From Planctomycetota bacterium (lineage in GTDB: Bacteria; Planctomycetota; UBA8108; SXIK01), in the NCBI GenBank assembly GCA_965223845.1, contig CBDCXR010000004.1, positions 4,384,001 to 4,448,000 on the forward strand: a DNA stretch of 64,000 nucleotides, given 5' to 3'. The translations under genes were made by a program, and so were the position numbers. Under the pieces are notes generated by a model. The model was not told the DNA's origin, ran no database searches, and saw only the letters and a list, made by a program, of their open reading frames with translations. This document shows, piece after piece, positions 3,819 through 17,386 of this stretch (its first letter is position 1; every line of letters begins with the position of its first letter).

Positions 3819-6800
3819 TCAGTCCCGCGGAGAGTTGGAAGTGGTCGCGACGATTTCGATCGCCGAGATCTTCGGCGCGCCGATGACCGGCACGAACTCG
3901 ACGTCGAGAGTTCCGTCGTCGACGACCGCGGTCCAGGGGTGAGCGTTGGCCACCGCAAACCCCTCCGAGGCAGGTTCGAAATTCGTCAGAGCCGGCCGCC
4001 GCTCGACACGTACGTCGAATCGGCGTGCACCCGGCTCGCGCAGATCGAGCTCGGCGAAATGAAAGGTGATCCGGTAGGTTCCCGCCGGCAGCGGAATCCG
4101 GTATGCCGGCCGGGAGTCCTCGTCGTCAAAGTCGCGAAACGTACGATAGAGAAGGTGATCGCCAGTGTTCCGGACCGGCCCTTGGAGCGTGTATTTGAGC
4201 GTGCTCCGGGAGCCTCCCTCAAAGAATCGGTCCCGCTCCCAGATCCGATCGCCGCTGTCCGTGTACCGCTCGCCGCCGCAGTTGATGCGAACGGTCCCAC
4301 GCTCGAGCTCTTCGAGTAGGGAACGCATGTCCGCTGCGTAGCCGTCGGTCGAGCTCGAAGGAAAACTCTCGAGCAGATCTCGCGGTCCTCGATGCAGATC
4401 GGAGATCGCCGTCTCGAGCCAAAGTGTCCAGAGCCTTCTGTCGTCGTGTCGGTTCAGAACCTCTTGCAAATACGCATCGGCCCGAACGAAATCTCCCTGA
4501 ATGCGCAGGCTTTCGATCCGTCGGAGATGGACCAGCACATCGGCGTCGGGTACGCCGGCCAAGCCTTCGAGAGTCTCGAGCGCGAGCTCGGGTCGGTCTC
4601 CGCGCTGCAGGAGGCGAGCGTCGAGGTAGGAGAGGACCGCCGGTGCATTCGCCGCCGTGCGCATTGCTGCTGCCAGCTCCTTCTCGGCGCGCGAGCCGGG
4701 CTGAACGTTCTCGAGCGCAGCATCGACGGAAGCGGCGGAGGCGACCTCGGGAAGGAGCTGCTCACGGAGCTCGGCGAGCGCCCGGAGACTCTTTCGGGTA
4801 ACGTCCGGAAGCAGGACGGCCTTTTCCAAGAGACGCACCGCGCCTCGAGCATCGCCACGCGCCGACGTGATCTCCGCGAGCGTGCAAAGTGCTGCGTCCC
4901 CCTGCCACTCCGAGTTCTCGACGGCGCGGACCGCGAGCGCGTAAGCCTGATCGCGATCTCCGTACGGAGCGTGAAAGAGAATCGAGGCTACTGCGGCTTG
5001 GAGATCATCTCGAATCTCCCGACTGGACTCCGCGATGCGGGTCAACTTCGCGACGACCTCGGCCGGAGGAAAGCGGCCGGAGTCCTCGATTCTCCGAAGC
5101 GATCTTGCCAGAAGGCGCTGCGTCCAGTGGGCTCCGCGCACCCGCGAGAGGTGATTCATCAGCGGATCGAGCGCCTTCAGAAACTCTCCTGCGTGAAACA
5201 GGGCGTGCCCGAACTCGCGTCGGGCCGACGCGTTCCGAGGCGCCAGTTCGACGGCTCGTTCGGCGGCTTCGATCGCCTCCGCGTGCTTTCCCAGCTTCAA
5301 TCGGGCGTTGCAGAGACCGGTATAGGCGCCCGATCGAGCCGGGACGAGCTCCGCGAGCTCGCCAAACGTCTCTTCCGCCTCGCGGTAGCGTCGCTCCTTG
5401 ACGAGCGTCCAGCCCAGCTGCGAGCGAACCGAGAACACGGACCCGAGCTCCTCGGCCTTCCGGATCGAAGCGGCGGACTCCTCGTCTCGATTCAGGTGTC
5501 TCAGGATCCGCGCGCGAGCAAGCCACCGTTCCACCCTCCGCTCGTCCAGCGAGATCGCGCGATCGATTACGGCGAGCGCCTCCTCCACCTTGCCCTGCAG
5601 AAAGCGAACCCGCGCGAGCCCGGTGAGACCCTTGCCGTTCTCCGGCGGCAGGGTCGACGCCGAGAAGAAGTGCTCGCCGGCCTCGTCGTACTTGCCCTCG
5701 TCCAGGCGACACAGCCCCAGGAGGACGCGCGGCAGTGCCCAGTTCGGATCGAGCTCGGTTGCGCGCATCGCGGCCTCGATGGCAGCCGTCGGATCCCGTC
5801 GCTCGTAGCAAACCATTGCGAGCGAGGTTTGGAGATAGCTGTCGTCCGGGGCCATGGAGACTCCGCGGCGTACGAGCTTCTCGGCCTCGTCGAGGCGGCC
5901 TCGGGAGTACGCCAGGATGCCTCCGGCGACGTGCGCGATCGGATGGGATGGATCGAGTGCGAGTGCACGATCCACGGCGTGCTGGGCTCCGGCGCGGTCG
6001 TTCTCTCTGAGGAGCGTCAACGCCAGAATCGCGAACGGAAACGGGTTCGCAGAGTCCAGCTCACAGGCGCGGCGGAGAGAACGGAGCCCTTCGGCTTGCA
6101 AGGATTCGTCGCGCCCATCCGACGAGAAAAGCCTTTCGAAGTAGACGGACCATCCCAAGACGGCGTGGGCTACGGGGTCGGCTTCGTTGAGCGCGATCGC
6201 CGAACGAGCTGCCTCGATCGCCTCGGCGGACCTCCACAGCCGGCACAGGAACACGGCGCGAAGCCGACGCGAGAGCTGCTCGCGCGAAATCCTGCGGCTC
6301 CAGCGAAGGGCGTGCTCGTACTGCCGCAGGGATTCGTACGTGATGGCGATCCACGCGGCGGCGATGTCCTTGTGCTCGACCATGTCGTGAAGGCCCGCGA
6401 AGGTCGCTTCCGCGCGAGACGGGCGTCCCCCGCGGAAGTACGTCTTCCCGAGAAGCAACCACGGTTCGAGCAGGGTCGGCCACAGGGCGCGGAGCTCGAC
6501 GAACGCGACCTCGGCTTCGTCGAGGGCTCCGGCGGCGAGCAGCGCGGCGCCCTTCGCGAGCCGCGTCTCGATCGACGAGCCGAGGAAGAGCTCGTTACCG
6601 GGCCCCTCCATTCGCGCGAGGTGGTCGAAGGCGCGTGCGACCTCGAGCCACCGCTTCTTCGTCTGTTCGAGGTCCCGGTTCGCCACGCGTTCCTCGGCTC
6701 TCCGTGCGGCGCGATAAGCGTCGAGCCAGGACGACGCCCACGAAACACCTTGCGACGCTCGCGACCAATCTTCGATGCGCTTCTCGTTGACGGTCTCCCC

Positions 6801-8372
6801 GGAGAGCCTCGCGCGAAGGATTCGAGCGGGAACGAAGCTCGGCTCGCTGCGGAGCACGCGGTCCAGCGCCTGGATCGCCTCATCATCCTTCCGCAAGAGC
6901 GCCAAGGCCTGGGCCCGGTGGTAACCGGCCTCCGGTCTCGCGGGAACTCGCTCGGCAGCCGCGGCGAGGTCCTGCACGGCCTTCGCGATCCCATCGGATT
7001 CGCTCGCGATCGCGACGAGTTGAAGATCGCCGGGCGTGAACCAGAATCGAGAGGTCACCGGATTGCCGATTCGGCCTTCCGCTCTGAGAGTCAGGTAGCC
7101 TGGCATCAGCCGAGTCAACGCGGAGCGCACCCGCGGTTCGTACTCGACCAACGCCACCCGCGCTCGCTCCTGGTGCGCGCTGATGGCAAACCAAGCAGCA
7201 GCGGGAACGAGCACGAGCAAGGCGGAGATCACCGCTGAGTTCAACGCGTTGCGCCGGACGAAACGGAGCGCCTTCTCCCATTTCGGCTGCGGGCGCGCCT
7301 CGATCGGATCGCCGCGCACGAACCGCTGCAGGTCCTGCGCCAAAGCCTCCGCGGTTCCGTATCGGTCGGCGGCGTTCTTCCGAGCGCACTTCAGAACGAT
7401 CGTCTCGAAGTCCTTCGGCACGCGAGGGTTGGTCTTTCGCGGCTCCGTCGGATTTCGGTCGATGATCTGAGACAGCGTGTCGGCGTGGTCCTTGCCCCGG
7501 AAGGGCGGACGACCGCAGATCGCCTCGTACATCGTCGCACCCAGCGAGTACACGTCGGTACGGTGATCGACGGGGACTTTCTTCCGACGCGCCTGCTCGG
7601 GCGACATGTAGAGCGGGGTGCCGACGAAATCTCCCGAAAGCGTCAGCGACTCTTGCCCTTCGAGGAGTGCCAAACCGAAGTCGAGGATCCGGAGTCGGCC
7701 GTCCTGGTCGAGAATGAGATTCGATGGCTTGATGTCGCGATGGGTGATGCCCTTCGAGTGCGCGTGTTGGAGGCCGTCGGCGACGTGGGCGAACGCCTTC
7801 GCCATGTTGTGGAAGTACGCGACCTCGTTCTTGGAGCCAAACGGCGTCTCCGTCTCAGACTCGGCGTCCTTTGTCCTGGCGAGAATCTGCGCCAGCGTCT
7901 CGCCCTCGACGAAATCCATCGAGTAGTACGGCGTGTTCTCCTCCTGCCCCATGCCGTGAACGCCAACGATATTCGGGTGGTTGAGCTTCGCCGCCGCTCT
8001 CGCCTCTCGCATGAAGCGGTGAAAGCGCTTGTCGTCGACCGCGACGGCACCGGGCAGAACCTTCAGCGCCACCTGTCGCTCGACGGAGTTCTGCCACGCC
8101 TCGTACACCACACCCATGCCGCCGCGCCCGATTTGGCGACGCAGGGTGTAATCGCCGAGGGTTCCGAGATCTCTCGAAGCCGCGGAATCTCGGTATACGT
8201 CTCGCAGGAGTCGCAGTTGATCAATGAGCTCTTGGGCCACTTCCGGGTGGTCCGCCCGGATAGTTTCGATGTCGATCGCCTCTCCGGCATTCAAACGCTC
8301 GACGTACTGAGCGAACAACGCTTCGACGCCGGAAGGCAAGCCGCCGTGAGAGCCGTTCGTTTTCTCACTCAT
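3819..8372 (-). CDS. Membrane Hanks-type Ser/Thr kinase with TPR array and C-terminal malectin-like domain
   Basis: Kinase motifs IGRGGMGVVY, VALKVL, HRDIKPSN, DFGLA and GTPLYMSPEQ. One hydrophobic segment (SAVISALLVLVPAAAWFAI), then many TPR-like repeats. The C-terminus RINCGG...WERDRFF...LYRTFR...GTYRITFHFAE...RRFDVRVE...PKISAIEI follows the malectin pattern. Confidence 0.9.
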   Translation of the reverse strand: MSEKTNGSHGGLPSGVEALFAQYVERLNAGEAIDIETIRADHPEVAQELIDQLRLLRDVYRDSAASRDLGTLGDYTLRRQIGRGGMGVVYEAWQNSVERQVALKVLPGAVAVDDKRFHRFMREARAAAKLNHPNIVGVHGMGQEENTPYYSMDFVEGETLAQILARTKDAESETETPFGSKNEVAYFHNMAKAFAHVADGLQHAHSKGITHRDIKPSNLILDQDGRLRILDFGLALLEGQESLTLSGDFVGTPLYMSPEQARRKKVPVDHRTDVYSLGATMYEAICGRPPFRGKDHADTLSQIIDRNPTEPRKTNPRVPKDFETIVLKCARKNAADRYGTAEALAQDLQRFVRGDPIEARPQPKWEKALRFVRRNALNSAVISALLVLVPAAAWFAISAHQERARVALVEYEPRVRSALTRLMPGYLTLRAEGRIGNPVTSRFWFTPGDLQLVAIASESDGIAKAVQDLAAAAERVPARPEAGYHRAQALALLRKDDEAIQALDRVLRSEPSFVPARILRARLSGETVNEKRIEDWSRASQGVSWASSWLDAYRAARRAEERVANRDLEQTKKRWLEVARAFDHLARMEGPGNELFLGSSIETRLAKGAALLAAGALDEAEVAFVELRALWPTLLEPWLLLGKTYFRGGRPSRAEATFAGLHDMVEHKDIAAAWIAITYESLRQYEHALRWSRRISREQLSRRLRAVFLCRLWRSAEAIEAARSAIALNEADPVAHAVLGWSVYFERLFSSDGRDESLQAEGLRSLRRACELDSANPFPFAILALTLLRENDRAGAQHAVDRALALDPSHPIAHVAGGILAYSRGRLDEAEKLVRRGVSMAPDDSYLQTSLAMVCYERRDPTAAIEAAMRATELDPNWALPRVLLGLCRLDEGKYDEAGEHFFSASTLPPENGKGLTGLARVRFLQGKVEEALAVIDRAISLDERRVERWLARARILRHLNRDEESAASIRKAEELGSVFSVRSQLGWTLVKERRYREAEETFGELAELVPARSGAYTGLCNARLKLGKHAEAIEAAERAVELAPRNASARREFGHALFHAGEFLKALDPLMNHLSRVRGAHWTQRLLARSLRRIEDSGRFPPAEVVAKLTRIAESSREIRDDLQAAVASILFHAPYGDRDQAYALAVRAVENSEWQGDAALCTLAEITSARGDARGAVRLLEKAVLLPDVTRKSLRALAELREQLLPEVASAASVDAALENVQPGSRAEKELAAAMRTAANAPAVLSYLDARLLQRGDRPELALETLEGLAGVPDADVLVHLRRIESLRIQGDFVRADAYLQEVLNRHDDRRLWTLWLETAISDLHRGPRDLLESFPSSSTDGYAADMRSLLEELERGTVRINCGGERYTDSGDRIWERDRFFEGGSRSTLKYTLQGPVRNTGDHLLYRTFRDFDDEDSRPAYRIPLPAGTYRITFHFAELDLREPGARRFDVRVERRPALTNFEPASEGFAVANAHPWTAVVDDGTLDVEFVPVIGAPKISAIEIVATTSNSPRD

Positions 8373-9027: not shown

Positions 9028-9512
9028 GGAATCTCAGAAGATTCTCTGGCCCATTGTATTCCCGTGCTCCACGAGGCCGGAGCGACCAGTTGGGTGCACC
9101 CGATCAGTACGAGACTGGTGACGTTCGCAGGCTCGTTTCGCCTCCTCGGGGCGCCTCTCCACTCTGCCAAACGCGAGTTACGGCCACTCGAAACCGCTGC
9201 GCACGGCTCGAGATCGACAGGGAACGGAGGGTCTCGCTCAAAGCGCGAAGTCGCGGCATGCGCACTTTTCTTTCGAGTGAGCGAAATCTTTCGGCGTAGC
9301 TCGGAAGTCTAGCGATCGCGCTCTCAAGCGAGCGACGCGCAAGGGGCGGGATGGAATTCACGCCGCGAGAAAGGGAGAACTCGAACGACCGGTCGCGGGG
9401 GTACGAAAGATTCCTCACTCCGCGCCATTTTCCCCACCGCACCAATCCTCGAGCTGAAGAGCGTTCTCAGCCGATTCTCTATGGTAGGCTGACGTCGAAA
9501 AGGTGTTCGGTG

Positions 9513-12455
9513 ATGGTGTACGAAAACCCGCGCGAGCTGACTCGATCTGTTCCGGTGTGCCGCCACGAATGTTGCGGCACGGTAGGTACGCTCTGCCGCT
9601 GGTCCCGACGCATCGCCGCGCTCGCGCTCACGTTCGCCTTCCTCGTCTTCCTAGCGAGCTGCTCGCGATCTTCGAGCGGTCCGGGCGCGGGACTCGATCC
9701 TCTTCCGATCGCCGGCGGCGTGACCGAGATGGAACGCGTTGAAGAGCTCAGTGAGACGGTTGCCAACCGATTCATCGAGTTCTCGGACAAGGTTCGGAGG
9801 CGCGACTTCGACGCCGCGGCCGTCTACCTGGGCGAGGATTTTCTCGGCACTGCATTCGGCGCGTGCGCGGCTCAGCCCGCCGAGACGCTTCCGGTCGGCG
9901 TGACGAGAACGCGTTTCGATCCCGCGCCGGCACGCGCCGAGCCGGCGAACCGAGCGACTTTTCTCCGCTCGCTTCGCGAGTTTCTCTCTCCGCTCGAGTC
10001 GATCGAGTACGTCTTCTTCAAGACGCGCGGCGCCGAGTTCACCCCGGATGCGAACCGAGGAGTCCTCCGGATGACCGTGCAGATCATCGGCCGCGAGCCG
10101 GGCGACCGTCCGTTTTCACTGAACGGCGCCGCGGCCGCGGAGGCGCTCAAGGTCGGCGAAGCCTGGGTGCTCCGGCGATTCGTACTCAAGAGCTTGAATG
10201 TCACGCGGCGAGATTCACCCGTGTTCACGGACGTGGCGACTTCGGCCGGAGTCGCGTCGTTCGGCCCGCGACTGGGAACGGGCGACAACACTAACTTCTA
10301 TTGGCGGGGCGCGGCCACCGCCGATGTCGACGGCGACGGGTACTACGACATCTTTACGACGACCAGTCGGCGCGCGTGGCTCTACCGCAACCGAGGCGAT
10401 GGCACCTTCGAAGATGCGACCGGCGGATTCGGCATCGACGCGCCGGCGAACTCGACTGGACCGCTCTTCTTCGACTACGACCGGGACGGCGATCCCGATC
10501 TCTTCCTGGGCTACGTCGGCTGGAGGGTCGACGGCGTGCCCCAAGGACAGTCGCTTCGCCTCCTTCGAAACGAGGGCGGAAAGCGATTCGTCGACGTGAC
10601 CGACGCGGTCGGTCTCGGAAACCAATACCTTGAAGCGTTCAGCGCCTGCGCGTCGGACGTCGACGGAGACGGTTGGCTCGACCTCTACATCTCCGCCTAC
10701 AACCGACTCGACGCCGAGTACCCGAACTCCTGGTACCGGGCGACGAACGGCAGCCCCAACGCGCTCTTTCACAATCGCGAGGGACGATTCGTCGACATCG
10801 CCGCGGAGGCCGGAGTCGCGGGAACGGGATGGAGCTACGCGGCATCCTTCGCCGATTTCGACGAAGACGGTGACGAGGACCTCTACGTCGCGAACGACTA
10901 CGGTGACAACTCACTCTACCGAAACGAAGGCAGTCTTCGTTTCCGCGACGTCGCCGCCGAGCTCGGCGTCCTCGATACGGGAAACGGGATGGGAGTGACT
11001 TGGGGCGACCTCGACAACGACGGGCGCCTCGATCTCTACGTCTCGAACATGTCATCGTCCGCCGGCAACCGCATCCTCTCGCGGCTTCCGCGCTCCGGCG
11101 GGCCGGGCTCCGAGCGGTCGGAGGGCTCCAGCTCGCGGCACTCGAGCCGCGGCGTACAGAGCACACTCGCGAAGCTCGCTGCCGGAAACACGATCTTCCG
11201 GCAGTCGGGTGCGCGCTTCGAAGCGCTGCCGGCCGAGAAGGGCGGGATCGGCGCGTCGTGGGCCTGGTCTGCGGCCCTGCTCGATATCGACCTCGACGGT
11301 CGATTGGACATCTACGTCGCCAACGGATTCATCTCCGGCGACTCGCTCAAGGACACATGAAGCGTCTACTGGCGCCACGTGGTGGCGTCGAGTCTCGCGG
11401 ATGACGCATCGGCGAATCCCGCGATCACGACCGCGAAGATCGAGGCCGAACGCCCGGGAAGCGATCGCTACAAGCAGGACCATATGTCTCTCATCTTCCA
11501 GCGCGGGCTTTCGTTCAGCGGTTTCGAACGGAACAAAGTGTTCTTCGGCGGATCGGACGGCGGGTACGTCGACCTCTCGGACGTGTCCGGCGCCGACACG
11601 GATGCCGACGCGCGAGCGGTTCTGGTCGCGGATTTCGATGACGACGGCGATGCGGACCTCTTCGTGAACGCGATCCAGCGCGAGCAGCACCTGCTTTATC
11701 GAAACAATCTCGACGGAGTCGCACCGAACCGCTTCGCGAAGTTTCGGCTGCGCGCCGCGCGAGGTCATCCGGACGCGATCGGGGCGATCGTGCGCGTCCA
11801 TCGAGGGAGCGTCGTCCAGGCGCAAGTGCTCACCTGCGGCTCCGGCTTCGAGTCGCAAAACGCGCTCGAGCTCATCTTCGGGCTCGGGGGCGTCAACAAG
11901 GCCCGCGTCACGGTTCGCTGGCCCGGACGCGAAGAAGAGGATTTCGGCGAGATCGAGGCCGGTGGTCGCTACGTCCTCACCGAAGGCGCGGGAAAGCCGT
12001 CTCCCTTCGCGGCGAAGACGTTTCGGTTCGTCGACCCGGCTCCGAGAGGCGTCAAGGTACGACTCGGAGACCGTCTCGGTTCGCTCGCCCTCAAGACCGT
12101 GACGGGCGAAGACAAGACGCTCGATCTCACGCAGGAGAAGCGAAAGACCCTGCTCAATTTCTGGGCCACGACCTGCGCCTCCTGCGTGGCGGAACTCCCC
12201 GAACTGGCGAAACTTCACACCGGCGAGACCTACCGAGTCATCGCGGTGAACCTGGATCCACCGAGTCAAAGAGATGCGATTCTCGAACTTTGGTCGAAGC
12301 TCTCCCTCCCGTTCGACACGTTTCTCATCGGCGACAAAGATGCGGATCGCCTCTTCGACGTCGCTCGGATGGGCATTCCGCTCTCGATCGTCGTCGGGGC
12401 CGACGGACGCATCGAGCGCATCCTTCAAGGGCGCATTCGCGAGGGCCAGCTGTAA
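9513..12455 (+). CDS. Candidate selenoprotein: lipoprotein with NTF2/SnoaL-like region, FG-GAP/VCBS propeller, ASPIC/UnbV domain and C-terminal TlpA-like thioredoxin; in-frame TGA at 11358-11360
   Basis: ORFs 9351-11360 and 11379-12455 are in the same frame and are separated only by TGA plus 6 sense codons (DSLKDT-U-SVYWRHVVAS). Lipobox LASC. DxDxDG repeats occur on both sides of the TGA, followed by SFSGFERN, DAIGAIVRV...GSGFESQN...FGLG...VRWP (UnbV) and NFWATTCASC. A SECIS-like hairpin follows the TGA. Start codon uncertain (9351-9555). Confidence 0.75.
11361..11393 (+). promoter_or_regulatory. SECIS-like hairpin downstream of in-frame UGA
   Basis: GGCGCCAC (11371-11378), GTG loop, GTGGCGTC (11382-11389): an 8-bp stem with one G-U pair, extendable by ACT/AGT. 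The GU-initiated loop lies 18 nt after the UGA. Confidence 0.65.
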
Positions 12456-12492
12456 GCGTCCCCGCGGGTTCGCCGCGGCTTCGCGCGGACTC

Positions 12493-15400
12493 GTGATGTT
12501 CGCGGCGTCGATGGCCTTTTCGGCCTGCGAGCCGGCGAAGACGCCGACGGAGCTCGAAGCCGCCGCGATCTCCGATCCGTACCGTCTGCGCAACCTCGGA
12601 AAGCTCCACGCCGATCGAGACTCGGGCGAGGGGTACTTCGACGCCGTCGCGTACTTTCGCCGCCTGGTGGAGCTCCAGCCCGACGACCCCGCCGACCGAC
12701 TGCGTCTCGCGAAAGCGATGCTCTTCGCGGAAGAACCCCAGCGATCCGGCGCCGACGCCGAAGGCGAAGAGAGCGCGCGAGCGCGCGCCGCCGCGAGAAC
12801 GGACGAGGCGAAGCGCCAGCTCGAGGCGGCCCGGCGACTCTTCGGCGACGAGGTCCCGCCGGACGTGGACTACGTCGAGGGACTCATCGAGCGGCGCCGA
12901 CAGCGCTACGTCGAAGCCGCGGCGGCATTTCGCCGAGTGACCGAGCAACGGCCGCGACACGGTTTCGCTTGGTTTCAGCGGGGGCGGATGAACGAAGAAG
13001 CGGGGAATCTCGAAGAAGCCTTGAATTGCTACTCGCGGCTCGTCGAGATCGACGCGACGCACCGAAGCGGCGTCTACCGTCTCGCCACGCTTCTCACGCG
13101 GCTCGAGCGAAAGGACGAAGCGAAGCGTGCGTTCGATCTCTTCGCAAAGATCCCGAAGAGTGAGCACACCGAGAACGAGAAATGCGACCTGACCGCGATC
13201 ACGCTCCGGCCGTCGGGAGGCGAACGGGACGAACTACCGGGAGCCGAGCTCCGCTGGGCAGACGTCACCGCAAAGCACTTTCCCCACGGAGCACCCGAGG
13301 GAGTGAGCCGCGCGTTTCCCCTCTGGCTCGGATCGCCGAAGGACGTCGCATCTCTCGAGGCGGCCCTTCTTCTCATCGGCCCGAGCGTCGCGGACCGCGA
13401 ATCGGGTGCACGGATTCTCACGCACGACGGAGATCGACTCGCTGTCGCCCCCACGACCGACCAGCTCGCCGGGGCGATCGCCGGCATCAACGACGCGGCG
13501 GTGTGCGATCTCGACGGCGACCGGCGCCATGACGTCGTCCTCGTCTCTGAGGCGGGAATCCAAGTCTTTCGCGGCGCGGAGCCGCGAGGATTCGAGCTCG
13601 TCGAGGCGCTCGCGATCGAACGAACGCCCGGGACCATCGAACACGTCCGCCCCTACGATGCCGACCACGACGGAGACCTCGACCTCGTCGTCATCGTGCG
13701 CCGAGACGGACGCGCGCACGCTTCGATTCTACGGAACAACGGAGTCGACGACGGCGTCTCGTTCACCGAGCTGACCCCGTTCGAAGGTCTCTCGATCGTT
13801 TCGGACCCGGAAGTGCGGCGCTTCTCGGTCGACGCGCACGACGTCGATCAGGCGAACGATATCGACTTCGTCTTCGCGGGCGGAGATCCCGGCGTCCAGG
13901 CGTTCCTCAACAAGCGAGGTGAGGGCTTCGAGCGCGTAGCTCTCCCCGAGCTCGGCCGCCATGATCGCGTGCTCGTCGAGGACTTCGACGGCGATGGCGC
14001 GCCCGACTTCTTCGCGACCGGAGCCGATCCCGGCTGGACGATCGCGATGAACTCGGACCAGTACGGAAATCCTTACCGGCTCAGACTGGACGCTCCCATT
14101 TCCGAACGAGCCCCGCGCTCGGGCGCCATTCACGATGCCGTTCTCGGCGATGTCGACAACGACATGGATACGGACGTCGTGCTCGCCACCGATTCGGGAA
14201 TCGTGATTCTGCGAAATCGCTCGGGAGGAAAGCTCGTCGAGGAGAACGCGGTTCCGATCGCGAGCGCAAACGAATCGATGGCCGCTCGTACCTGCGAAGT
14301 CGTCGATCTCGATCTCGATGGTCGACTCGAGATCGTCGCGACCGACTCGGCGAGCCGCCTCGTCGTGCTCGAAAACGAAACGCCCGGACTGTCCGCCGGT
14401 TGGACGATCAGCCCCGTCGGCGGACGAGACAACACGGACGCGGTGGGAACGGTGGTCGAGCAGTTTCGCGGCAACCGCTACCAGAGCCGAATGATTCGCC
14501 GCGCGGGCGGGCTCCACCTCGGACTCGCTGGCGAGCGGCTCGACGGCGTTGACGGCCTTCGGCTCCGCTGGCCGCAGGGAATCGTGCAGGCGGAGCCCGC
14601 GCAGTCCATTCGCCGCGGCACGAAGGGCGAGAAGCAGCCGCTGTTTCGCTTCGACCAGAAAGCCGGGCTCGTCTCGAGCTGCCCGTTCCTCTACGCGCGC
14701 GGGCCGAGTGGTTTTCGCTTCCTCACCGACGTGCTCGGCATCGCGCCGCTCGACGAATGGCTCCCGGAGGGCGGCACACCGCACTACGACCCGGAGGAGT
14801 TCGTGCGAGTGCCCGGCGACGCCCTTGCCGCGTTCGACGGACACTACGAGTTCGCGCTCACGGAGGAGCTACGCGAGACGGCTTACCTCGATCGATTCGA
14901 GCTCATCGTCTGCGACCATCCGGCCGATCGGGAGCTCTATCTCGACGAAAGCACTCGCCAGGGTGTCTACGAACCGCTGCGCCTGATTGTCGTGCGGCAA
15001 GAGCACTTGACGCCGCCGACCAGCATCGAGCTCGAGTACGGAAAGGCGACGACAGACGACGTCGCGCGAATCGACGGGCGCTACGCGCACGGATACCCCC
15101 GCGCACCGAGTCAGCTCGCGGGTTGGGTCGAGCCGTTCGATGTCGAGCTCGAGACCGATTCGCCGGCTCGGGCTCTTCTTCTCACGGGACGCATCGCGTG
15201 GTACGACTCGACCGTCGTGTACGCCCTCTCCCAAAACGGTCGCGAATGGGGCCCCTATCGGCTCGAGCGCATCGAGGAAGACGGCCGGACGACGACGCTG
15301 GTCGAGAACCTGGGATTCCCGGCGGGCATGAATCGCACGATCGTAGCGGAGCTTCCCGCGGGATCGGTGGCCGCCGGTACGCGGCTCCGGCTTCGCGGTC

Positions 15401-15984
15401 ACCACCGGTTTTTGTGGGACCGCATCCTCTTCGCGCGAGACATCGAGCGCGTCGAGATCGAGAAGCGAGAGGGGGAGATCGATCTCGCGCGCGCAGGACC
15501 CGCGGGGCCATCGAGCATCCGGTTCCAGACCGTCGCGGTTTCCGATGCCCGGCTGTCGTTTCACGGCTTTTCAAGAACGAGCGGAAGCCGAGCGCGCCAC
15601 GAGCAAACGTACCACTACGCCGACGCGGCTCCGGACGACTCGTTCGCACCCGCGGTGGGCCGCGCCACTCGCTACGGCGACGTCACGCCGCTTCTTCACG
15701 AACACGATGACCGGCTCGTCGTCGTTCCGGCGGGCGACAAAGTCGAGATCCGCGTGCCGGCGGTCGACGAGCCGCCGGCGACGATGCGCCGCACGTTTTT
15801 CGTTCGAATCACCGGCTGGGCGAAGGAAGGAAGCTTCCACAACCCATCGGGAGGACGAATCCTCCCGCTCCCGCGAAAGGACATGACGCGCTATCCGCCC
15901 GGCGCGGAGGTTGCTGACGATCCCGAATACGTCGAGTACCTGAACGCCTACCAGACTCGCTGGATTCGACGCCGCTCACCATGA
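12493..15984 (+). CDS. TPR + FG-GAP repeat + ASPIC/UnbV-like protein with large C-terminal domain (probable lipoprotein)
   Basis: AFSAC lipobox-like motif, TPR repeats, and many DxDxDxDxD repeats. Also DNTDAVGTVVE...LHLGL...LRWPQGIVQ, then SSCPFLY, EELRETAYLD and GWAKE. Start uncertain. Confidence 0.8.
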   Translation: MMFAASMAFSACEPAKTPTELEAAAISDPYRLRNLGKLHADRDSGEGYFDAVAYFRRLVELQPDDPADRLRLAKAMLFAEEPQRSGADAEGEESARARAAARTDEAKRQLEAARRLFGDEVPPDVDYVEGLIERRRQRYVEAAAAFRRVTEQRPRHGFAWFQRGRMNEEAGNLEEALNCYSRLVEIDATHRSGVYRLATLLTRLERKDEAKRAFDLFAKIPKSEHTENEKCDLTAITLRPSGGERDELPGAELRWADVTAKHFPHGAPEGVSRAFPLWLGSPKDVASLEAALLLIGPSVADRESGARILTHDGDRLAVAPTTDQLAGAIAGINDAAVCDLDGDRRHDVVLVSEAGIQVFRGAEPRGFELVEALAIERTPGTIEHVRPYDADHDGDLDLVVIVRRDGRAHASILRNNGVDDGVSFTELTPFEGLSIVSDPEVRRFSVDAHDVDQANDIDFVFAGGDPGVQAFLNKRGEGFERVALPELGRHDRVLVEDFDGDGAPDFFATGADPGWTIAMNSDQYGNPYRLRLDAPISERAPRSGAIHDAVLGDVDNDMDTDVVLATDSGIVILRNRSGGKLVEENAVPIASANESMAARTCEVVDLDLDGRLEIVATDSASRLVVLENETPGLSAGWTISPVGGRDNTDAVGTVVEQFRGNRYQSRMIRRAGGLHLGLAGERLDGVDGLRLRWPQGIVQAEPAQSIRRGTKGEKQPLFRFDQKAGLVSSCPFLYARGPSGFRFLTDVLGIAPLDEWLPEGGTPHYDPEEFVRVPGDALAAFDGHYEFALTEELRETAYLDRFELIVCDHPADRELYLDESTRQGVYEPLRLIVVRQEHLTPPTSIELEYGKATTDDVARIDGRYAHGYPRAPSQLAGWVEPFDVELETDSPARALLLTGRIAWYDSTVVYALSQNGREWGPYRLERIEEDGRTTTLVENLGFPAGMNRTIVAELPAGSVAAGTRLRLRGHHRFLWDRILFARDIERVEIEKREGEIDLARAGPAGPSSIRFQTVAVSDARLSFHGFSRTSGSRARHEQTYHYADAAPDDSFAPAVGRATRYGDVTPLLHEHDDRLVVVPAGDKVEIRVPAVDEPPATMRRTFFVRITGWAKEGSFHNPSGGRILPLPRKDMTRYPPGAEVADDPEYVEYLNAYQTRWIRRRSP

Positions 15985-16075
15985 CTCCGGACTGATCGAG
16001 CGAGCGCTCTACCGCGGAGCAACGGGGCAACCGAAATCGAGGGGGGAAACTCTTTTTCTCGGAGTGTCGATCGTT

Positions 16076-17386
16076 ATGCGCCGAGCCGTGATCCCTCTAC
16101 TCATTCTCTTTCCCCTCCAGGACTTCTCCGCCGGCGAGACGCAGTCGACGTCGCGGGACGAGTCCCTCCAGCGAATCGAAGACGCCCTCGCCGAGGACGA
16201 GGGCCTCGATCCTAAGACGAAGAAAGCTCTCGAAGATCTAGTGGACGTACTCCGGGCCGACGGCGAGCGAGCAACGGGCCGAGTCTCGGGGGACGAGCCA
16301 CCCGAGGAGGCTTCGCTCTGGGAGAAGTTCATCGACGCGTTCACGCTCTACGGCGATGCTCGTTTTCGCTACGAGTCGAGTTTCGAGCTCGACGACAAGG
16401 CGGACCGCCACCGCGCAAGGCTTCGTTTGCGTCTCGGGGCCACCTATCGGCTTCTCGACGAAGTCGCCATCGGCGCGAGACTCGTCACCGGAGATCGAGA
16501 GGATCCCAATTCTCCGCATGTCACTCTCGGAGACGGCCTCAAGAACCTCGAAATCAGCCTCGACCGGGCGTTCATCAACTACCGGCCGTCTCGACTCGAA
16601 GGTGCATACCTAACCGGGGGCAAGTTCGGACACCCGTTCTACGCGAACCCCGTCTACGGCGAGCTGGTGTGGGATGCCGACGTTCAGCCCGAGGGAATCG
16701 TCGCGGGATACTCACTCCCGGAGCTCGGTCCGATGGCAAGCCTCCGCTTCACCGCCGGCGGGTACATCCTCGAGGAACGATCCTCGGTGTCCGATTCGTT
16801 CCTGCCGGTCGTCCAAGCGGCCGGGCGGTTCGAGGTCTCAGGCGACGTCAGCGCCACTGCGGCCGTCGGATACTACTGGTACACAAACGTCGACACTTCG
16901 CTCCTCGTCGAGGACAACGCCGGCAACGGAGTGGTGGATACGGACGGCGACGGATCTCCGGACGAGTACGATTCGGAGTTCGGGATCCTGAATCCCATCC
17001 TCGCCTTCACCTACAGCGGCTGGGACTTGCCCGTGACGCTCTCCGCGGAGTACGTCCTCAACACGGAAACCGGGGCCGAGGACAACGAAGGTTGGGCGGC
17101 CGGCATGGCCGTGGGAAGCACGAGAGCGAAAGGGGACTGGCGGTTCTACTACCAGTTTCAGGTGATCGAACAGGATGCCGTCTTCTCCGCGTTCGCGCAG
17201 GACGACTTCTTGTTTGCGACCAACCACCGGAGTCACCTCTTCGGCATCAACTACCAATTCGTGGACGAAATCGGGATCCACGTGTGGGGCCTGGTCTCGC
17301 AGCGCGACGAGACGTTCTCGAGCGCGACCGCCGACAGCGACAAGGGGCAGTGGCGAGTGCGCGCGGACTTGAACATCCGCCTGTAA
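16076..17386 (+). CDS. Putative outer-membrane porin
   Basis: Signal peptide, helical N-terminal region, and motifs YGDARFRYE, RHRARLRLRLG, LDRAFINY and LVWDADVQPEG. Alternating beta-strand pattern ending RVRADLNIRL. Confidence 0.8.
   Translation: MRRAVIPLLILFPLQDFSAGETQSTSRDESLQRIEDALAEDEGLDPKTKKALEDLVDVLRADGERATGRVSGDEPPEEASLWEKFIDAFTLYGDARFRYESSFELDDKADRHRARLRLRLGATYRLLDEVAIGARLVTGDREDPNSPHVTLGDGLKNLEISLDRAFINYRPSRLEGAYLTGGKFGHPFYANPVYGELVWDADVQPEGIVAGYSLPELGPMASLRFTAGGYILEERSSVSDSFLPVVQAAGRFEVSGDVSATAAVGYYWYTNVDTSLLVEDNAGNGVVDTDGDGSPDEYDSEFGILNPILAFTYSGWDLPVTLSAEYVLNTETGAEDNEGWAAGMAVGSTRAKGDWRFYYQFQVIEQDAVFSAFAQDDFLFATNHRSHLFGINYQFVDEIGIHVWGLVSQRDETFSSATADSDKGQWRVRADLNIRL

Follow-up and report, generated by a model that had tools for sequence, protein, structure and literature searches.

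An in-frame TGA in a CRTAC1-like propeller protein of a planctomycete is very probably a selenocysteine codon and points to an apparently undescribed family of exported selenoproteins

CRTAC1 is regarded as a calcium-binding extracellular protein and not as an enzyme, and the vertebrate protein ends in a calcium-binding domain of the epidermal growth factor (EGF) type. For the bacterial members of the CRTAC1/ASPIC-UnbV group we know of no function. A second group of described systems, the thioredoxin-fold selenoproteins, comprises families that carry selenocysteine (Sec) within an active-site motif, UxxC or UGC (PMC13188914), and a 2026 review tabulates 119 prokaryotic selenoprotein families in all (PMC13188914). 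Here we analyze a gene that has features of both groups, located in a stretch of 64,000 nucleotides (nt) from contig CBDCXR010000004.1 of a Planctomycetota bacterium (hereafter the window). The gene lies on the forward strand at 9513..12455 and is interrupted by a single in-frame TGA at 11358-11360. Comparison with its relatives indicates that this TGA is very probably a selenocysteine codon, and that the protein would be one of a large family of exported selenoproteins, apparently undescribed so far, that share a CRTAC1-like scaffold.

Under translation table 11 the TGA splits the region into two open reading frames (ORFs), 9351..11360 and 11379..12455. Translating 9513-12455 with TGA as U gives one 980-residue frame in which U616 is the sole recoded codon, within the context ...NGFISGDSLKDT-U-SVYWRHVVASS..., and the extent of this gene is further supported by its domains and by orthologues that align to residues 30-980 with a single TGA within (genome search with the read-through protein). 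Pfam models matched on the read-through protein include FG-GAP_3 (152.7 bits, E 3.9e-45, in six stretches), FG-GAP (73.1 bits) and UnbV_ASPIC (residues 755-820, 11775..11972; 46.3 bits against a cut-off of 23.4), so that the propeller and UnbV_ASPIC lie in one chain. Residues 852-968 (12066..12416) match Redoxin (31.5 bits, cut-off 26.6) and AhpC-TSA (31.4 bits, cut-off 26), and inside this thioredoxin-fold domain is a CxxC motif, C-A-S-C, at residues 888-891 (12174..12185; read from the translation and from alignment columns). An FG-GAP-type DxDxDG motif, DFDDDGDAD, is found C-terminal of the TGA at residues 707-715 and is invariant in a 34-row protein alignment (A2), which means that the propeller extends across the TGA. 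An earlier note on this DNA had proposed that two annotated ORFs are one frame broken by a single TGA, and that FG-GAP repeats continue past it into UnbV and a TlpA domain with an intact CASC; both proposals are borne out by the translation, the Pfam hits and the motif at 707-715. Toward the N-terminus a hydrophobic stretch leads into L-A-S-C (residues 47-50, 9651..9662), read from the translation as a candidate lipobox and export signal. Orthologues are similar at this place (LAAGC, LTSC, LPAC), and the protein is probably exported and lipid-anchored.

The TGA is conserved at the same column in a wide range of relatives. A protein search with residues 480-780 against a collection of 5.8 billion proteins listed 120 clusters, of which 97 (the window's own product included) terminate exactly one residue before U616, with no tail and at identities down to 37%; the remainder are one fragment and 22 clusters that span the column. 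A second, profile-free search covered 1.84 billion representatives at 50% identity, and at least 29 of the 150 proteins listed stop at query residue 615 as their own last residue (hand count), while seven others among the same 150 start 2-33 residues past the column and represent separately called downstream halves. The stop-ended homologues are named in their sources as "VCBS repeat-containing protein", "FG-GAP repeat domain-containing protein" or "hypothetical protein". At the DNA level, 201 genomes of the phylum were searched with the read-through protein as query, at most 4 candidates being scored per genome; 58 of the 201 match at E <= 1e-30 and 43 of the 201 contain TGA forms. An internal stop is present in 80 of the 118 match rows listed, and all 80 include TGA, one of them also TAG (hand count). 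The first 62 of the 118 rows all have an internal TGA, and only 8 of the 38 stop-free rows span column 616.

Within 46 genes from fetched loci (alignment A1, from which L030, L050, L053 and L054 were left out for want of a motif hit) the TGA sits in the motif NG[FY][IV][ST]...D[TLYC]-U-[ST]xxW[RC]x[VL], and the frame is kept in all 46. The protein alignment A2, from which L015 was excluded for its three TGAs, L030 and L031 for divergence downstream of the TGA and L011 for a short C-terminus, gives the conserved motif D-T-U-S-x-x-W-R-[HQ]-V-V, in which D614 and W620 are invariant and S617, R621 and V624 are conserved in at least 90% of rows. Eight such TGA genes are found in the window's genome, seven by tblastn with the stop at the column and one as a divergent copy. 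Beyond Planctomycetota, record labels assign TGA forms to "Myxococcota bacterium" (L067) and to an unclassified "bacterium" (L066), and a stop-ended cluster to "Pyrinomonadaceae". Conservation of the TGA across lineages, suggested as a check by the earlier note, is therefore seen in agreement among database clusters, phylum genomes and the 46 aligned genes. Two side observations concern the same region. L015 (G026:C78) and some rows with two TGAs have two or three in-frame TGAs, the second of L015 coming 20 codons later, and these extra codons may encode additional Sec, terminate translation or be errors. Many members have one or two cysteines 13-14 residues before the Sec (CVNGF, CCSGF, CTNGF), where the protein of the window has Val at 602; these cysteines could be resolving residues.

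A trivial origin of the TGA, as a sequencing or assembly error or as a private nonsense mutation that turned the gene into a pseudogene, is extremely improbable. The same TGA occurs in 45 other aligned genes and in seven further paralogues, and the downstream frame is conserved across 364 residues. The base calls at 11358-11360, a point that the earlier note had marked for checking, agree with contigs of two other runs that cover 11100-11700 with 0 differences. These two contigs are probably from the same sample as the genome, and they exclude an assembly slip without being biologically independent. Short contigs from two further runs, whose flanks differ, match only 11347-11391 (45 nt, 2 differences), which indicates that other family members in the sample carry a near-identical core of UGA plus hairpin. 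Assemblies seem to break at 11347-11392.

In the bacterial Sec insertion sequence (bSECIS) model, the hairpin has a loop of 3-9 nt with G in the first two loop positions (usually then G/U), a stem of 4-16 base pairs (bp), a UGA-to-loop distance of 16-37 nt and a minimum free energy (MFE) of <= -7.5 kcal/mol (PMC13188914). The candidate SECIS hairpin of the window (11370..11390), assigned by folding, covariation and the bSECIS constraints, consists of a stem formed by 11370-11378 and 11382-11390, with nine pairs that include one G-U and one U-G, and a GUG loop at 11379-11381. Its stem begins 9 nt and its loop 18 nt past the TGA, and the 48-nt stretch folds with an MFE of -18.8 kcal/mol; the GUG loop, 9-bp stem, 18-nt spacing and MFE all lie within the four bSECIS constraints. 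A hairpin with a GTG loop 18 nt downstream had been described in the earlier note and is present as described, the stem being counted here as nine pairs. Hairpins across the family have loops of 3-5 nt starting with G and then U or G, at a spacing of 17-18 nt.

The case for this hairpin beyond chance is comparative. The 46 stretches (TGA plus 45 nt) were aligned without gaps, and a helix pairing columns 13-20 with 26-33 was tested, in which 82.3% of cells are paired. The covariation score is 0.330, versus 0.153 when shuffled (0 of 500 shuffles reach the observed value), and sliding the partners by 1-3 columns gives at most 0.109; two-sided changes are observed in 34 cells versus a shuffled mean of 11.2. 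Pair 18:28 alone has 22 two-sided changes and takes six standard pair types (CG 18, AU 13, GU 6, UA 2, UG 2, GC 1). Column 18 falls on the third position of an Arg codon, where changes are synonymous, and column 28 on the first position of the Ala/Ser/Thr/Pro codon that comes three codons further on; the tracking of a non-synonymous column by a synonymous one is hard to explain by protein selection alone. RNAalifold independently gives a core of 15-20 with 26-31 and compensatory changes in four of its five pairs, so that the SECIS covariation named as a check in the earlier note is found both in the 46-sequence alignment and by this program. Loop position G22 is invariant among the 46 sequences and U23 is conserved in at least 90%. 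As a control, all six core pairs are kept in 40 of the 46 Sec forms, versus one to three of the six in five Cys forms, which fold weakly (-1.6 to -5.2 kcal/mol) and encode a different downstream peptide, FWRHDIY.... A Glu form, L058 (G004:C83), retains three of the six core pairs and folds at -14.1 kcal/mol.

The machinery required for Sec decoding is encoded in the window's genome, where SelA (453.3 bits), SelD (307.8 bits) and SelB (320.2 bits, or 352.7 bits including a C-terminal piece, against a cut-off of 242.25) were identified together with a tRNA-Sec (68.1 bits, gathering score 47) that ARAGORN calls tRNA-SeC with anticodon tca (UCA). The presence of selA, selB, selC and selD, on which the earlier note had made its proposal depend, is thereby confirmed. 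SelA is found in 148 of the 201 phylum genomes, and all 43 genomes with TGA forms are among these 148 (hand comparison). As a separate observation, SelA is present in 94 of 129 high-quality genomes of the phylum sample, a very high share for a bacterial phylum, pointing to an unusually wide use of selenocysteine. The machinery also bears on an alternative genetic code, under which TGA would be read as a standard amino acid such as Trp or Gly. An open frame across the TGA agrees with such a code, whose probability is nonetheless practically negligible: several orthologues and the neighboring gene at 12274-15984 terminate at an ordinary TGA, so that TGA is not reassigned genome-wide, and the matches hold one TGA each and not many. 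The tRNA-Sec with anticodon UCA stands beside a full set of Sec machinery, and homologues carry Cys at this column rather than Trp or Gly.

The predicted structure places the TGA within a single fold. AlphaFold2, run on A2, returned a model with a mean pLDDT (predicted local distance difference test) of 88.5 and a pTM (predicted template modeling score) of 0.89, in which an N-terminal alpha+beta domain is followed by propeller blades, a helical insert (residues 616-663), further blades, the UnbV beta-sandwich and the thioredoxin fold. The blades upstream of the Sec codon occupy 10218..11357, as judged from FG-GAP_3, the model strands and the CRTAC1 match described next. Against the PDB, the top Foldseek match is murine CRTAC1 (9etn_A, E 1.8e-26, TM-score 0.71, target-normalized); phmmer also aligns the protein to 9etn (E 1.1e-16) in an alignment that omits residues ~530-701, so that the Sec-bearing insert is not alignable to CRTAC1 by sequence. 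The C-terminal domain matches ResA (1st9_A, TM-score 0.72, target-normalized, Foldseek) and StoA (3erw, 9.4e-8). The insert (11358..11501) is defined by its modeled helices, 616-634, 636-640 and 651-663, lying between blade strands, and by the conserved motif. The insert begins at U616, which is also where helix 616-634 starts, and the model thus disagrees with the earlier note in one respect, as Sec had been placed in a propeller loop and here stands at the N-terminus of a helix within an insert. The N-terminus of a helix is the usual site of the redox-active Cys or Sec in thioredoxin, glutathione peroxidase and DsbA-type proteins.

These results are difficult to reconcile with a genuine stop at the TGA, in which case the propeller and the UnbV plus TlpA-like domains would be separate polypeptides and the hairpin would have its role in translational coupling or in stabilizing the mRNA. 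Gene callers do annotate the split throughout, and a GTG lies at 11379, inside the hairpin loop. In every one of the 80 rows, however, the break is a TGA, with TAA or TAG never standing by itself, and the frame beyond it is kept in the 46 aligned homologues. The break falls inside a continuous, confidently packed fold with a DxDxDG blade motif after it, and stop-free forms with Cys, Arg or Glu are single chains. The hairpin loop is G[U/G] at SECIS spacing, and SelA accompanies the TGA form in all 43 genomes. We consider a true stop very improbable.

The residues that replace Sec in relatives bear on its role. For the Sec/Cys pair and other REPLACEMENTS, the eight stop-free places that span the column were fetched and compared by tblastn with residues 571-700, and seven aligned; the eighth, L060 (G038:C9), has no match to this segment. 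A permissive motif scan of L055-L142 had given mostly ordinary FG-GAP DxDxDG repeats and was replaced by the tblastn comparison. Five of the seven aligned forms have Cys at the column (G005, both copies of G142, G091 and G105), and the other two have Glu (G004) and Asp (G096). G005 and G142 are the only SelA-negative genomes with a column-spanning form, both with Cys; SelA was not found in either, at 91% and 86% genome completeness, respectively. Among the 22 column-spanning database proteins, 17 keep the flanking motif; at the column, two of these have Cys, five Arg, three Glu, two Leu and two Asn, and one each has Ile, Val and Ser. The remaining five, very long FG-GAP multi-repeat proteins with M or a gap at the column (BLAST), lack the flanking motif and were discarded, and the distant L069-L106 (Bacteroidota, Acidobacteriota and others) do not align across the column and carry no weight either way. 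The Cys homologues that the earlier note had looked to in support of Sec do exist, with the refinement that Cys is just one of several replacements (R, E, L, N, I, V, S).

The identity of this residue follows the presence of the C-terminal CxxC domain. In A2, 17 of 19 Sec rows and 2 of 2 Cys rows have the full pair of CxxC cysteines, against only 2 of the 13 rows in which the column holds some other residue; of the two exceptional Sec rows, one runs off its contig and one ends at a further TGA 201 residues on. In each of the seven other paralogues of the window's genome, the translation shows FG-GAP and UnbV_ASPIC with a W-x-x-x-C-x-x-C segment behind them; AhpC-TSA is matched at E <= 1e-4 (Pfam) by four of these paralogues, and most also have TPR repeats. 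A quick maximum-likelihood tree (LG+G4) of 38 rows hand-picked from the top hits and rooted on four Sec paralogues requires at least four Sec/non-Sec changes, namely two to Cys, each sister to Sec forms, one to V/L and one to an 11-row clade. In this clade (SH-aLRT, approximate likelihood ratio support, 97) the CxxC domain is lost and the column is variable (I, N, E, L, R). Subject to the rooting and to the rows chosen, we read this as Sec being ancestral in the group, with loss of the reductase domain releasing the constraint on the column.

A mechanism can be proposed in which SelA, SelB, SelD and tRNA-Sec of this genome would decode the UGA, aided by the SECIS hairpin that starts 9 nt downstream, to yield a single exported, probably lipid-anchored protein of ~980 residues with an N-terminal alpha+beta domain, a CRTAC1-like propeller with UnbV, and a TlpA/ResA-like CxxC domain. 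Sec would then act as the redox-active nucleophile of a periplasmic oxidoreductase, a catalytic role and location that we infer. Oxidation of Sec by a substrate would give a selenenic acid or selenenylsulfide, which the fused CxxC domain would reduce, and a membrane electron shuttle would in turn re-reduce the CxxC domain, as with TlpA/ResA-type proteins. The relay part of this proposal draws on the co-occurrence of the domains, the pattern of loss in the tree and the helix N-cap position of Sec. The earlier note had likewise described a ~980-residue selenoprotein with propeller, UnbV and TlpA domains, a description now supported by TGA conservation, SECIS covariation and the sel genes; its further suggestion that the TlpA domain recycles Sec gains from the co-occurrence of the domains and is not backed by geometry or experiment. 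We regard an exported selenol-based oxidoreductase, whose oxidized Sec is recycled by the fused CxxC domain, as the probable nature of the protein.

Sec could also be inserted without serving as a relay nucleophile: it could be a ligand for a soft metal or metalloid, or the UGA could mainly be a switch through which selenium determines whether a propeller-only product of 615 residues or the full-length chain is made. Such a role would suit the unrelated residues found at the column in non-Sec relatives (R, E, D, L, N, I, V, S), with Cys in the minority, and the absence of a partner Cys next to Sec in this protein. Asp, Glu and Cys can all bind metals, and FG-GAP proteins, here with their invariant DxDxDG, are known calcium binders. 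The distribution of the CxxC domain, present in all eight paralogues and largely confined to Sec and Cys rows, is at odds with it, however. Variation at the column is concentrated in a single derived clade, the one from which this domain was lost, a combination that resembles loss of function rather than alternative chemistry, and for a pure switch the Cys forms of genomes in which SelA was not found would be needless. We judge a relay-free role unlikely, though less so than a true stop, and prefer the oxidoreductase.

Several points weigh against the reading of a selenoprotein with a catalytic Sec. Cys is a minority among the stop-free database homologues that bear the motif (2 of 17, the others having R, E, L, N, I, V or S). 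Because a strictly essential catalytic residue is normally replaced by Cys only, this variety argues against a simple essential nucleophile; a non-Cys majority among close stop-free relatives is unusual for a selenoprotein and is the chief point against that view. The relay itself is inferred from co-occurrence and not from the geometry of U616 relative to Cys888/891, and the tree was built quickly from rows picked by hand. Related genomes are not independent, so that 43 of 43 with SelA overstates the statistical weight and is supportive rather than a formal test. On the RNA side, the stability of the single hairpin is not remarkable given the high GC content (z = -1.17, with 24 of 200 shuffles folding equally well), and single-sequence stability was accordingly dropped as evidence, leaving the comparative data as the part of the case that exceeds chance. 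The helix tested for covariation was derived from the same 46 sequences, and an Rfam scan of 11300-11460 returned no SECIS family, its only hit being a chance one at E 9.1. Finally, the Asp form L059 (G096:C24) keeps six of six core pairs and folds at -12.7 kcal/mol, and the hairpin is therefore not perfectly TGA-specific; the hairpins of the Asp and Glu forms may be relics of a lost SECIS.

Other features of the gene and its surroundings were also recorded. The N-terminal domain (residues ~62-235, 9696..10217), defined on the AlphaFold model by helices 73-95, 99-105 and 147-158 and a long, curved antiparallel sheet with pLDDT above 90, has no Pfam or NCBIfam match and is conserved among orthologues. 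The next gene (12274-15984, forward strand) encodes a TPR plus FG-GAP protein without an UnbV or thioredoxin hit, and has no open continuation past its ordinary TGA. Its listed ATG overlaps the end of the selenoprotein gene by ~180 nt, and its true start is therefore probably later. Further out, 3819-8372 on the reverse strand encodes a Ser/Thr protein kinase of 1517 residues that carries TPR repeats and, at its C-terminus, a malectin domain, and 16064-17386 on the forward strand a Porin_5 family protein.

Full-text literature searches returned no description of this family as a selenoprotein. None of the 119 tabulated families lists PF13517, PF01839 or PF07593, and the Sec motif and domain are unmatched among them (PMC13188914); the terms FG-GAP, propeller, Planctomycet, repeat, integrin and lipoprotein have 0 occurrences in that review (PMC13188914). 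An NCBIfam scan of the read-through protein gave no hit to a selenoprotein model. A study of Planctomycetes from Porphyra (PMC4807772) reports selenoproteins such as FdhA and FmdB, and its Table S9, of selenoprotein candidates in two Planctomycetes, might list a member. Within this scope the supposition of the earlier note that the family is not known as a selenoprotein holds. Selenoprotein catalogues have been built mostly from Sec/Cys pairs in thioredoxin-like folds, and the scarcity of Cys homologues, together with a Sec outside the thioredoxin fold, may explain both the universal split by gene callers and the absence of the family from the list of 119.

The family comprises at least 29 clusters at 50% identity and eight paralogues in one genome, and by record labels extends over Planctomycetota, Myxococcota and Acidobacteriota. 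With eight copies in this one genome and an occurrence in 43 of 201 sampled genomes of the phylum, it could account for a large part of the selenium demand of these organisms. On balance we lean toward the wider view of a large unrecognized family in which a CRTAC1-like propeller would be a periplasmic selenoenzyme with a built-in TlpA-type reductase, Sec being ancestral and lost at least four times, once together with the reductase. If so, the CRTAC1/ASPIC-UnbV fold, so far seen as a calcium-binding adhesin-like module, began as a redox catalyst or can be one, and redox chemistry would provide a first functional handle on this family. The peptide W-R-H-V-V-A-S would also have been shaped in part by the SECIS RNA that it encodes, offering a clean natural case of an RNA structure and a protein motif that constrain each other. 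For annotation, hundreds of entries named as VCBS/FG-GAP repeat proteins (~560-620 residues) would be cut short at the Sec codon and should be joined to the ORFs that follow.

The protein resembles CRTAC1/ASPIC-UnbV proteins in having an FG-GAP beta-propeller followed by UnbV_ASPIC, and one database homologue is named "CRTAC1 family protein". It differs from CRTAC1 in the addition of a Sec-led helical insert (616-663), an alpha+beta domain at the N-terminus and a thioredoxin-fold domain with CxxC at the other end; no EGF family is among the Pfam hits at E <= 0.01, and a TlpA-like domain occupies the C-terminus instead. This domain shares its fold and CxxC with TlpA, ResA, StoA and DsbE but is fused here and not a stand-alone membrane-anchored protein. 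Its NCBIfam scores are below the cut-offs for DsbE (37.5 versus 123), ResA (34.8 versus 170), TlpA (33.3 versus 230) and StoA (31.1 versus 210), and with all five NCBIfam models far below cut-off, the domain is, by its sequence, related to the named equivalogs and not a member of any. With the thioredoxin-fold bacterial selenoproteins the protein has in common a predicted export, the combination of Sec with a TlpA-like domain, and a UGA with a downstream bSECIS. In contrast to these, its TlpA-like domain has an all-Cys CxxC, and the Sec lies ~270 residues upstream in another domain. The hairpin likewise agrees with the bSECIS consensus, of which E. coli fdhF is the prototype, in being a coding-sequence hairpin just after the UGA with loop, spacing and MFE in range, but it has a primary sequence of its own, UGG-CGN-CAS-GUN-..., which at the same time encodes W-R-[HQ]-V-V-[AS].

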